From Desulfatiglandales bacterium (GTDB lineage Bacteria > Desulfobacterota > DSM-4660 > Desulfatiglandales > Desulfatiglandaceae): DNA of 64,000 nt. Below, piece after piece: positions 42,001 to 45,000 of the stretch. The position numbers are program-made. The first letter of the stretch is position 1. Every line of letters begins with the position of its first letter. The stretch lies in assembly GCA_963662465.1 (NCBI GenBank), contig OY759599.1:4256001-4320000 (forward strand). Direction: 5' to 3'.

Positions 42001-45000
42001 GATGAACCCACGGCGGCCCTGGACCTGGCCCATCAGGTGCGGGTCATGGATTTGATGGAAAGGCTGAGAGTGGGAAAAAACCTCACCATTGTGATGGTAT
42101 CTCACGACATCAATCTGGCCGCCATGTACGGGAACCGCCTCATGCTCCTGAAAAAAGGACGCATTATAAAAATGGGCGCCCCGTCGGAAGTCCTCACTTT
42201 TGAGACCCTGGAAGAGGCTTACGAATGTCCGCTCCTGGTGGATAAAAGCCCCCTGGGAAATTTCCAGCGGGTGACCCTGGTGCCCGAAAAATTCATTGAT
42301 CCGGAATTACAGGCGGGCATTACGGATCAAGATGATGCCCCAGGGGCTTCGCATCCGTTCTCCCGCAGGTTGCCATAAATACCCCGAACCTGCCGGCACA
42401 ACAGCTCAAACTGTTCGGGATAAAGGGACTGAGGGCCGTCGCTCAATGCCTCTTCAGGGGCATTATGAACCTCCACCATCAAGCCGTGCGCCTCCACCGC
42501 CACAGCGGCCCTGCTCAGGGGAATCACCTGATCCCGCCTTCCCGCCGCATGGCTGGGGTCAATAATGATGGGCAGATGACTTTCCCGCTGAACCACGGGG
42601 ACAGCGGAGAGATCAAGGGTATTCCGGCTGTGATTTACAAAGGTGCGAACGCCCCTTTCACACAGGACAACCTGGGAATTCCCTTCCGCAAGGATATATT
42701 CCGCCGCCATCAACCATTCATCGATGGTGGCGGCAAAGCCTCTTTTAAGGAGTATCGGCTTCTTACACAGGCCCGCCCGTCGCAGAAGGCTGAAATTCTG
42801 CATGTTCCGGGTCCCGATCTGGACCATATCCGCGTATTTCTCAACCGCATCAAAATTTTCGTAGTCCAGGACCTCGGTCACCACCGGCATTCCGGTAACA
42901 TCTCTTACCCGGGCAAGAATTTTTAATCCCTCCAGACCCAAGCCCTGAAATGAATAGGGCGAGGTCCTCGGCTTGAAGGCCCCGCCCCGAAAGATATGGG
43001 CGCCTGCTGCCTTGACCAGCGTTGCAATTTCCAGGGCCCGGGCTTCGCTCTCTATGGCACATGGCCCCGCGATAAGGGTCAGATGGCCGGTTCCGATCTT
43101 AACCCCCTTCACATTCACGATGGTATCTTCCTTTTTAAATTCCCGACTAACCAATTTGTAGGGTCTTGTGACCGGAATGGCTTCTTTAACGCCTTTCATG
43201 GCCAGAAATTTTGATCCGTCAACAGGCCCCTTGTTATTCAGGATGCCGATGGATACCCTTTCTCCTCCCGGTATGGGACGAGACGTATAACCATTTTCCG
43301 TTACGGCCGACATCACCGAATCAATCTGTTCCTTTGTTGCATCCTTGTGCATGACCAGCAGCATTTTCTTTTCTCCTATTCATGAGATTTACAGTGCCTG
43401 AACTCAGAGCCTGTTTAAAAAAAAAGGGCCGGAAGAATTTTCCCCCGACCCCTGAAACAAAAAAGGACCGTGGGCTCTTGAAGAGCCCACGGTCCTTGAA
43501 TTCTATGTTAACGGCGGTTGCCTATATTAACTGGACCATACACCCCTCCCGGTGTTAAACCAGCGCCACCACCAAAAATGACGAAATATTGAATTTGAGT
43601 TTTTCATGCGTTATTCGACCTTTTTCTCAGCTTTGATCTTTAATTTTAGGGATTGTACTGAAAAAAAAATTGTATTGCAACGTTTTTTTTACCCCATCAC
43701 CTCACCGGAGCGGCGCTGGTTCAGGGGAAAACGGTGGTTTGCGAATGCGCCCATAGGCGGCAACAGGGTCTTCCCCCGCCTTCAAGGCGCCCAAATGAGT
43801 AGGTACAGGAACTCCTCTGCAATCCAGTTCATCAATGGACCGGTATCGTCCATCTGCTTCGACGCCAAAGAGCAACGCACAATCAAGAGGCGTCTCATAC
43901 AACATCAAAAGAGCGTTTCTGTATCCAAAAAGCTCGAAACTCACCGCGCACCGGTTGACCGCTGGAATCTCCGGAATGGGAAAACGAATCGAACTCAGCC
44001 TCGTAGACAACGGATAAGCCATAAAAGCCCACCTCAAACTCCTGACCCCTGCCTCTTCTTTACACCTCGACATCTTGGCGCGAGACCTCAAAACAAGTTT
44101 ACAAAAATACCGCCGACTTCCGGCCTTCCTGCCCCTGTCTTCCTCTTCAGATTTGAGTTTCCGCTTGCCTCTGCGGGAGACTCTCTACTGCTTTTCCGTA
44201 CGTCCCGGATTTCCCCGTCAGACCCACCGGGACCTAAACAAGTTTACAAATTGGTAACGGTCCCCCATTATACTTTTTTATAATTTTATGGACGCCCCGA
44301 AAACCATGTTCAAGCAAACCGTGTCACCTGCCCGCCATTGCTACACCGGATCACCATCGGCTTTCTGTAGGCGTTGTCAGGCGGGTCCATACTAAAAAAA
44401 ATAATTTGTCTGTCCCTATTCCTCCTACTCTTATTCCAAGGTGTTCAACCGGGGTGCAAAAATAGATTTGGATAACGTACCAAAGGTGGCAACATTCCCC
44501 ATTCCAAAGCCCACTTCTTCTTATTCGCACAATTCTTATTGACAAGCTGCCCCATAATAGGTACACGGAAATCATATGGCTTTAAAAAGAAAAATCATTG
44601 ATGTTCAGTTCTATATGTCAGACCATGGGAGTATCCCGGTTAAGAAATGGCTGAAGGAATTATCTCCTGCAGATAGGAAGAATATTGGTGATGATATCCG
44701 AACGGTTGAATTTGGGTGGCCGGTTGGCATGCCGCTCGTAAGAAAACTCCATACTGATTTGTAGGAAGTCCGCTCTAATCTGGCAAACAACCGGATTTCA
44801 AGAGTCCTTTCAATGAATCGGTGATATTGCATACCTTAAGAAAAGCAGCTCATGCAGTCGGCCGAACACTGAAGCTCGAACTGGCCTAAGCGCCTGTTTA
44901 AAAATTATCCCTGCTGCGGTCGACTGCGGCTTCCGAAGGATTTATCCGCCTCAGGGCTCAAAACACGAACAGGCGTCAAACAAGCCTCATCAAATTCGCG

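Follow-up and report, generated by a model that had tools for sequence, protein, structure and literature searches.

Which signal governs a stand-alone DAHP synthase gene of a Desulfatiglandales bacterium, and how is that signal read? The gene lies within the window, a 64,000-nucleotide stretch of contig OY759599.1 from assembly GCA_963662465.1 (contig positions 4,256,001 to 4,320,000); unless stated otherwise, coordinates refer to positions in the window. The region in front of the gene very probably functions as a ribosome-mediated transcription attenuator that reads the level of charged tRNA-Trp; the element is conserved, and its function is predicted from the sequence. The genome-wide survey's note had proposed an uncalled Trp leader followed by terminators at this place, and both parts are confirmed: the leader occupies positions 43607-43527 and is followed by two terminators, T1 and T2.

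Results and discussion

The DAHP synthase gene and its leader region

The product of the gene exceeds the cut-offs of both NCBIfam NF006421 and TIGR01361 and matches the structure PDB 1rzm with an E value of 1.3e-105. It retains C102, R126, K131, R133, R186, H272, E298, and D309, which we take to be the catalytic and metal residues of DAHP synthase. The structure 1rzm is presumably that of the Thermotoga enzyme, in which we assume that His29 and Ser31 form the pocket for the inhibitors Tyr and Phe. The regulatory domain of the enzyme studied here has R29 and I31 where 1rzm has H and S, and it lacks the Thermotoga-type pocket defined by His29 and Ser31. The two residues lie in a PIPG-type motif, which is typical of the clade of enzymes with Trp leaders, yet is present in leaderless relatives too. 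The downstream neighbor of the gene is a convergent ABC transporter, the end of which overlaps that of the DAHP synthase gene; the latter is therefore a stand-alone gene. In a close relative, the stretches corresponding to 42559-43145 and 43580-43732 are covered by assembled contigs from one RNA run that contained 20% of the sequence words; these contigs give no ends, strand, or level and do not count as evidence of expression.

The leader peptide MKNSNSIFRHFWWWRWFNTGRGVWSS (stop codon not shown) contains a Trp run encoded at positions 43574-43566 of the minus strand, and the elements around it are arranged as listed in Table 1. The predicted promoter has a score that is weak by itself, with five such sites found against 2.9 expected. 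The nucleotides of region 2 are kept in relatives, though the frame in which they are read differs. The organization is that of a leader-peptide attenuator: in a short open reading frame, codons for one of the pathway's products are clustered, an intrinsic terminator lies ahead of the first gene, and the computed antiterminator excludes the terminator, is free when the ribosome stalls, and is covered once the ribosome arrives at the stop codon. Translational control by T2 was considered and rejected, since the DAHP synthase gene's Shine-Dalgarno sequence is located about 40 nucleotides downstream of T2.

Table 1 Predicted elements of the DAHP synthase locus, in the direction of transcription (positions in the window)
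Element	Position	Strand	Basis and remarks
σ70-like promoter, TTGCAA-17-TACAAT, 5′ of the leader	43652..43680	-	9/12 matches; relatives have similar boxes there (by eye)
Weak ribosome-binding site of the leader, AAGGU	43618..43622	-	Sequence; AAGG/GAGG just 5′ of the leader start in relatives (by eye)
Leader peptide reading frame, 26 codons	43527..43607	-	In-frame Trp run kept in 33 orthologous loci
Region 1, control codons F11 W12 W13 W14 R15 W16	43560..43577	-	Sequence
Region 2, 5′ strand of the antiterminator, end of the leader reading frame	43533..43548	-	Masked when a ribosome stands at W24 or at the stop codon
Region 3, 5′ arm and loop of T1	43480..43497	-	Partner is either region 2 (15 bp) or region 4
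Region 4, 3′ arm of T1 and U tract	43455..43477	-	Alternative pairing with region 5, 11/12 positions
Terminator T1, hairpin with U tract	43463..43497	-	Perfect stem, 16 pairs
Second terminator T2	43417..43453	-	Hairpin 43453-43424, 13 pairs; region 5 43453-43442; region 6 43435-43424; U9 tract
Ribosome-binding site of the DAHP synthase gene, AGGAG	43373..43377	-	Sequence; about 40 nt 3′ of T2, outside the T2 hairpin
Type Iβ DAHP synthase, 345 residues, N-terminal ferredoxin-like regulatory domain	42327..43364	-	PF00793 and PF18152

Competition between the antiterminator and the first terminator

Region 2 (43548-43533) can form 15 base pairs with the 5′ arm and loop of T1 (43495-43480). The complementarity of the leader end, GTCC, to the terminator arm reported in the genome-wide survey's note is the end of this longer helix, termed 2:3. 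The energy of the 2:3 duplex is -25.7 kcal/mol, which was equaled by none of 500 shuffled sequences and by none of 345 arms from the other terminators of the genome. Cognate 2:3 pairs were better than non-cognate ones both among 22 leaders of DAHP synthase genes and among 21 leaders of trpE, with 0 of 5000 permutations reaching the observed values in each set. In the alignment of T1, 96% of the cells are paired and 13 double changes occur (0/500 shuffles). Helix 2:3 is paired in 84.5% of the cells of the DAHP alignment, against 31-48% for slid registers (7/500 shuffles), and in 79% of those of the trpE alignment (0/500 shuffles); these counts lean high, as do those for the 4:5 helix described below, since each register was selected as the best one in a scan and the loci share ancestry. 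The number of double changes in 2:3 of the DAHP set is not above that in shuffles (77/500). Taken across loci, the predicted pairings of both the terminator and the antiterminator are supported.

Stepwise folding with the ribosome placed at W12, W14, or W16 retains all 15 base pairs of 2:3 until approximately four bases of region 4 have emerged. With the ribosome at W24 or at the stop codon no base pair of 2:3 is formed, a result that is partly built into the mask. Once the 3′ arm of T1 is complete, T1 (-31.7) outcompetes 2:3 (-21.9) at the DAHP locus, and the combination of 3:4 with 5:6 (-51.0) is more stable than that of 2:3 with 4:5 (-33.1). Therefore, antitermination at the DAHP locus must be kinetic. 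A 1:2 anti-antiterminator is not consistently predicted: among the 20 leaders listed, 14 still fold into 2:3 when no ribosome is present. In the free fold, the Trp codons are covered by a hairpin.

According to the proposed mechanism, scarcity of Trp would stall the ribosome at W12-W16, and region 2 would pair with region 3 before the 3′ arm of T1 emerges. Region 4, left free, would then with fair probability pair with the 5′ arm of T2, in which case neither terminator would form. By contrast, a ribosome that runs on would permit the formation of 3:4 and 5:6, two terminators in series. The expected outcome is an increased production of DAHP synthase under Trp shortage.

A second terminator and a possible relay

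The 3′ arm of T1 is complementary to the 5′ arm of T2, and a single stall could thereby disable both terminators. We consider such a relay more likely than not, with the pairing strong in the leaders of trpE and weak at the DAHP locus. T2 is present in all 21 aligned trpE leaders, in which helix 4:5 is paired in 96% of the cells, against 41-50% for slid registers (2/500 shuffles; covariation, 5/500). In one locus, L155, the cores of both hairpins are altered together. In 20 of the 21 trpE leaders, and in 11 of the 13 DAHP leaders that have a relay-capable T2, helix 4:5 is better than at least 95% of the pairings with 345 arms from unrelated terminators. However, these 13 are part of a set of 22 DAHP leaders, and 4:5 of the locus studied here is among the weakest (z score -1.1), with 61 of 500 shuffles and 53 of 345 unrelated arms being as good. 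In the DAHP alignment 4:5 is paired in 74% of the cells, its covariation is not in excess of that in shuffles (163/500), and cognate 4:5 pairs are no better than non-cognate ones (1396/5000).

It is conceivable, although we judge it doubtful, that the leader contains a single working switch and that T2 is a duplicated hairpin serving as a constitutive damper of leaky transcription or as a protector of the RNA end. The 4:5 pairing would then be a by-product of the duplication, as T1 and T2 have a common CCGTGG...CCACGG core, which automatically produces it. The weakness of the relay at the DAHP locus, its absence from 9 of the 22 DAHP leaders, and the greater stability of 2:3 with 5:6 (-41.2) than of 2:3 with 4:5 at that locus agree with such a duplication. 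However, a strong T2 with a U9 tract would block the gene if it were never disabled, and the comparison with unrelated arms shows that 4:5 is better than expected in most leaders capable of forming it. Furthermore, the 5′ arm of T2 follows the 3′ arm of T1 across three paralogous classes of leaders (by eye), which argues against the single switch.

Sister leaders and the specificity for Trp

The genome encodes a second DAHP synthase of type Iα, which is the first gene of the cluster aroG-aroB-aminotransferase-tyrA. It is preceded by the leader MTHHFADGFLYYWYYFYATCLPMVR with a YYWYYFY run and two terminators. Leaders with aromatic codons (Tyr/Phe/Trp) were found before aroG-aroB-tyrA at 9 of 11 loci. 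In front of aroK-aroC-pheA-(sensor kinase)-aroD-aroE-aroA, a third leader encodes FYYYYF and is accompanied by a single terminator, and Phe leaders precede DAHPS-pheA at five loci. The leader codons follow the downstream operon, with Trp before trpE, Tyr/Phe/Trp before aroG-aroB-tyrA, and Phe before DAHPS-pheA. No match to TrpR and no alternative dehydroquinate synthase II were found in the genome. The genome-wide survey's note had placed the entry into the shikimate pathway as a whole under Trp attenuation. This very probably holds for the type Iβ enzyme; however, the second DAHP synthase has its own Tyr/Phe-rich leader, and shikimate entry is therefore not solely Trp-controlled. As read from the leader codons, two isoenzymes share the entry, one led by Trp and the other by Tyr/Phe. 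A homologous family of attenuators would provide the trp and aro/phe operons and both isoenzymes of DAHP synthase with different aromatic signals.

The product of DAHP synthase feeds all three aromatic branches, and the leader could in principle be a general aromatic sensor that answers about equally to Phe/Tyr and Trp, with a stall at a Phe or Tyr codon also freeing region 2. Phe or Tyr immediately precedes the first Trp in 20 of the 22 DAHP leaders versus 2 of the 21 trpE leaders; five of the 22 DAHP leaders have clusters of the FF or YV-Y type directly upstream, and one contains WYYW. Nevertheless, a general sensor is unlikely: in most of the leaders, Trp codons number three to five and Phe/Tyr codons one to three, other aro operons have separate Tyr/Phe-rich leaders, and 12 of the leaders of this kind head trp operons. 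The sensing is probably Trp-dominant with a secondary input from Phe/Tyr, fitting an enzyme of the common pathway, and a side input from Phe to the Trp attenuator is probable.

It is very improbable that a protein or a metabolite, instead of the ribosome, shifts the balance between 2:3 and 3:4, with the Trp run being incidental, for example as a binding site made of TGG repeats. The region is G-rich, the TGG repeat is conserved at the nucleotide level, and most of the folds form 2:3 without a ribosome. However, the TGG codons of the leaders are in frame with a start codon, and several orthologues have TGC, TTC, or TAT codons that break up the Trp positions. In addition, the same hairpins occur in paralogous leaders, in which the codons are for Tyr/Phe or Ala and match the genes that follow.

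The attenuators of Desulfobacterota may more generally work in the manner of dominoes, with 2:3 freeing region 4 and region 4 capturing region 5, so that the off state is doubly tight, and with the runs of control codons being swapped according to the DAHP synthase isoenzyme. In this proposal, which is tentative, the clade with Trp leaders would perhaps consist of Trp-inhibited type Iβ enzymes. That these enzymes may be inhibited by Trp is a hypothesis prompted by an inhibitor pocket unlike the Tyr-binding one.

Distribution of the Trp leader in Desulfobacterota

The lineage falls within the order Desulfatiglandales of Desulfobacterota, as judged from its named relatives. Orthologues with at least 76% identity are encoded in 10 of 40 relatives. 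The previous claim that a WWW leader and a terminator beginning with AAGGACC accompany the enzyme in every relative holds for the WWW leader, which is present in all nine assessable loci, the remaining one being incomplete; the terminator begins exactly with AAGGACC in only five of the nine. Of 80 loci taken from the collection of genomes, 22 have at least 69% identity, and two of these 22 are incomplete. A Trp leader was found at 18 of the 20 assessable loci (one judged by eye), and two loci with 72-74% identity lack it. A Trp run with a terminator was found at none of the 58 loci below 69% identity. A sample of 300 genomes drawn evenly from the phylum provided 19 new loci that passed an E value of 1e-140 and were chosen irrespective of the leader; 11 of them have a Trp leader (two by eye), including all seven with at least 70% identity. 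In total, 33 distinct orthologues with Trp leaders were identified in several orders of Desulfobacterota. The enzyme is directly followed by trpE in 12 of the 33 loci (Syntrophobacterales, Desulfarculales, and further families) and by aroB in nine, and neither of the two genes is located in the examined stretch of the other 12, one of which stops at a contig end.

The possibility that the attenuator is an inherited relic that no longer regulates the stand-alone gene, with the perfect 16-bp stem of T1 dominating at equilibrium, is remote, because a 96%-identical relative, despite its different upstream flank, matches the leader, region 2, and T1 without a single change, and all nine assessable close relatives retain the design.

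Relationship to the trpE leader

The genome contains 459 TGGTGGTGG sites, of which 133 are located in short open frames. Only two of these also have a strong terminator downstream, and they are the leaders of the DAHP synthase gene and of trpE. The trpE leader MKTCEIKNTSALRNWWWRSFIQRGCAHRV (stop codon not shown; contig C1 of the genome, positions 1624908-1624819) is located ahead of trpEGDCFBA, with the gene names taken from translations and trpE assigned by Pfam. The homology of the two leaders asserted in the genome-wide survey's note is borne out: their local alignment has a score of 83, compared to 19.8±3.1 for shuffled sequences (n=300), a profile built from the 22 DAHP leaders matches the trpE leader with an E value of 8.5e-10, and one built from the 21 trpE leaders matches the DAHP leader with 3.2e-10. 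The same note had counted trpE leaders in 8 of 12 assessable relatives; here, they are present in 21 of the 26 assessable relatives (29 in total, three of which are not assessable), or in 22 if a copy displaced by an insertion is counted.

The description of the two attenuators as twins has to be abandoned. The DAHP leaders from Desulfatiglandales have a mean alignment score of 62 to the leaders of trp operons in other orders that begin with a DAHP synthase gene, and of 41 to the trpE leaders of their own order. Therefore, the split between the DAHP and trpE leaders is old, and by these scores the two are long-standing paralogues and not recent twins. The stand-alone gene may once have headed an ancestral trp operon and split off from it, or the enzyme may have joined the operon; the trees favor neither. 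The trpE-linked rows are nested in a quick tree of 60 rows, and in one of 58 rows with wider sampling they branch, without resolution, at several points near the base of a group of 37 rows that has a support of 81. The loci L012 and L014 are aroB-linked.

Comparison with known attenuators

The mechanism proposed here is a textbook one in an arrangement that is apparently undescribed so far: the control by Trp of a DAHP synthase isoenzyme in an aromatic regulon based on attenuators only. Searches of the open-access literature revealed neither a Trp leader ahead of a DAHP synthase gene nor one described in this phylum, nor a relay of two terminators; older subscription surveys, outside that scope, may list a Trp leader of the trp operon in Syntrophobacter. 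The available portions of PMC4833913, PMC3082878, PMC2965389, PMC3896937, and PMC9413887 contain nothing on a Trp leader before DAHP synthase. The portion available of one of them mentions that the rimP leader has a tandem terminator, and names no leader peptide (PMC2965389). With this element, attenuation of the classical kind would reach the entry into the shikimate pathway in Desulfobacterota, at a step controlled by Trp. The relay, if true, could be a compact and tight switch. The leader codons may also predict function, such as the dedication of a clade of type Iβ DAHP synthases to Trp or, from a sister leader, the specificity of the aminotransferase PRK06855 for alanine.

The trpL attenuator of E. 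coli is described in the available parts of two sources as a short leader with tandem Trp codons and mutually exclusive 2:3 and 3:4 pairings (PMC1183508, PMC11802643). The DAHP attenuator shares the tandem Trp codons, the exclusive pairings, the U tract, and the covering of region 2 by a ribosome at the stop codon. However, it is positioned to control DAHP synthase and not trpE, most leaders of its kind have three to five Trp codons, it has a second terminator and a 15-bp long-range antiterminator, and a 1:2 pause helix is not consistently predicted. It is not a member of the Rfam family Trp_leader, which was not among the 20 Rfam matches with E values of 10 or lower, none of which reached the gathering score.

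The lettered hairpins of the his attenuator form a cascade of alternative pairings. According to the part of the source available, the extra hairpin of the his attenuator in Salmonella and E. coli has been argued to lower basal read-through (PMC1183508). Both systems have an extra hairpin within a cascade of pairings; however, that of his precedes a single terminator, whereas T2 follows T1 and is itself a terminator with a U tract.

A related arrangement is that of aroR-aroF in Corynebacterium glutamicum, for which the accessible text reports a Phe-responsive leader with Phe-Tyr-Phe before a DAHP synthase gene and a separate Trp leader before trpE (Neshat et al. 2014, as cited in PMC11802643; PMC4046766). 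The two systems share leader-peptide attenuation directly before DAHP synthase, in addition to the separate leader of trpE. The element from Desulfobacterota differs in its Trp run, type Iβ enzyme, two terminators, and phylum. Attenuators have also been predicted before aroA-Iα-tyrA in Vibrio, before aroA-Iβ-tyrA in Thermus, and in the aroA'-...-trp supraoperon of the sulfate reducer Desulfovibrio vulgaris (PMC1173090, Table 7), and in the 5′ untranslated regions of aroF and aroH in Shewanella (PMC2659441). Like the attenuator described here, they precede DAHP synthase genes or an aromatic supraoperon; in the parts of these sources available, no Trp leader peptide and no double terminator are given for them, and none deals with the enzyme clade studied here.

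The division of labor between isoenzymes has a counterpart in E. coli, where AroF, AroG, and AroH are each assigned to a different aromatic amino acid. In the available part of the source, these isoenzymes are placed under the control of TyrR and TrpR (PMC11802643). Several DAHP synthases are likewise tuned to different aromatic amino acids in the bacterium studied here. However, the tuning apparently proceeds by leader peptides and acts on two unrelated subtypes, with type Iβ led by Trp and type Iα by Tyr/Phe, in a genome in which no TrpR was found. The attenuators may thus provide an RNA-only counterpart to the isoenzyme logic for which E. coli relies on repressors.

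Cysteine codons and surroundings of the stand-alone DAHP synthase

The run of consecutive TGG codons in the leader is broken by Cys codons in many orthologues, as WCW, WCCW or WWCWWWC (loci L055, L056, L058, L059, L061, L072 and L169–L173). These codons may reflect either the decay of TGG by one base or a Cys input to the attenuator. In locus L066, the gene for the Trp-led DAHP synthase is followed, in the same orientation, by one for a pyridoxal-dependent decarboxylase.

The DNA 5′ of the leader promoter (window 43700–47500) differs from that of the 96%-identical relative. It includes a 62-codon open reading frame, closed by an in-frame TAG, which has no Pfam match and which we take to resemble a bacterial toxin-antitoxin gene. 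On the other side, the FecCD-type ABC transporter is convergent with the DAHP synthase and overlaps its stop.

Features accompanying the leaders (G000:C1, contig of the genome under study; W, window)
Feature	Position	Strand	Locus
MYCKLTGFFYFRFMGTPPPVD leader, one terminator, 854-residue protein gene	G000:C1:3650958-3653710	+	L035
YYWYYFY leader, two terminators, aroG-aroB-aminotransferase-tyrA	G000:C1:3252216-3256487	+	L040
MFTNRSWQGFYYYYFGGPSMV leader, one terminator, aroK-aroC-pheA	G000:C1:2039800-2032136	-	L036
MFHMLNEAAALIAAAADVPVALGEASMA leader, two tandem terminators, PRK06855-family aminotransferase gene	G000:C1:5744620-5746142	+	L186, L187
Pyridoxal-dependent decarboxylase gene	L066:1638-2984	+	L066
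thrS-infC-(rpmI)-rplT-pheS cluster (names from translations)	W 35112-39507	-	
FecCD-type ABC transporter	W 39567-42378	+	
62-codon open reading frame	W 44576		
Transposase-like open reading frame, overlapping frame next	W 45263-46840		

Aromatic leaders at other loci

The same genome carries leaders before further aromatic-pathway operons. Aromatic leaders are present at nine of the 11 loci of the operon that begins with the type Iα DAHP synthase (aroG). The aroK-aroC-pheA operon contains a PAS-type sensor kinase frame ahead of aroD-aroE-aroA, and a transposase-like frame lies immediately 5′ of its leader, both labeled from their translations. The protein encoded behind the Phe-rich MYCKLTGFFYFRFMGTPPPVD leader has a metallo-β-lactamase fold at its N-terminus; a shorter homologue is encoded approximately 1 kb 3′ of the DAHP synthase in loci L052 and L053.

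Other type Iβ paralogues (48–56% identity; L016, L019, L020 and L022), which are followed by aroB, have mixed Tyr/Phe/Trp leaders with terminators upstream, and L016 has two short aromatic frames and two hairpins. More distant DAHP synthase-pheA operons (L090, L105, L113, L118 and L125) are preceded by Phe-rich leaders such as RRFFGFCWFR. The leader is absent from trpE of one family (L145, L146 and L148), where trpE is positioned directly 3′ of a gene whose product has a C-terminus presumably similar to that of tryptophanase or tyrosine phenol-lyase.

An alanine-rich leader

The aminotransferase behind the Ala-rich MFHMLNEAAALIAAAADVPVALGEASMA leader belongs to family PRK06855, with alanine aminotransferase as the second-best model. 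Ala-run leaders precede this gene at six of nine loci with at least 62% identity, the G000 locus included, and at none of the six loci near 49% identity. The MFHMLNEAAALIAAAADVPVALGEASMA element is a candidate for an attenuator that senses alanine and belongs to one family with the Trp-leader attenuators.
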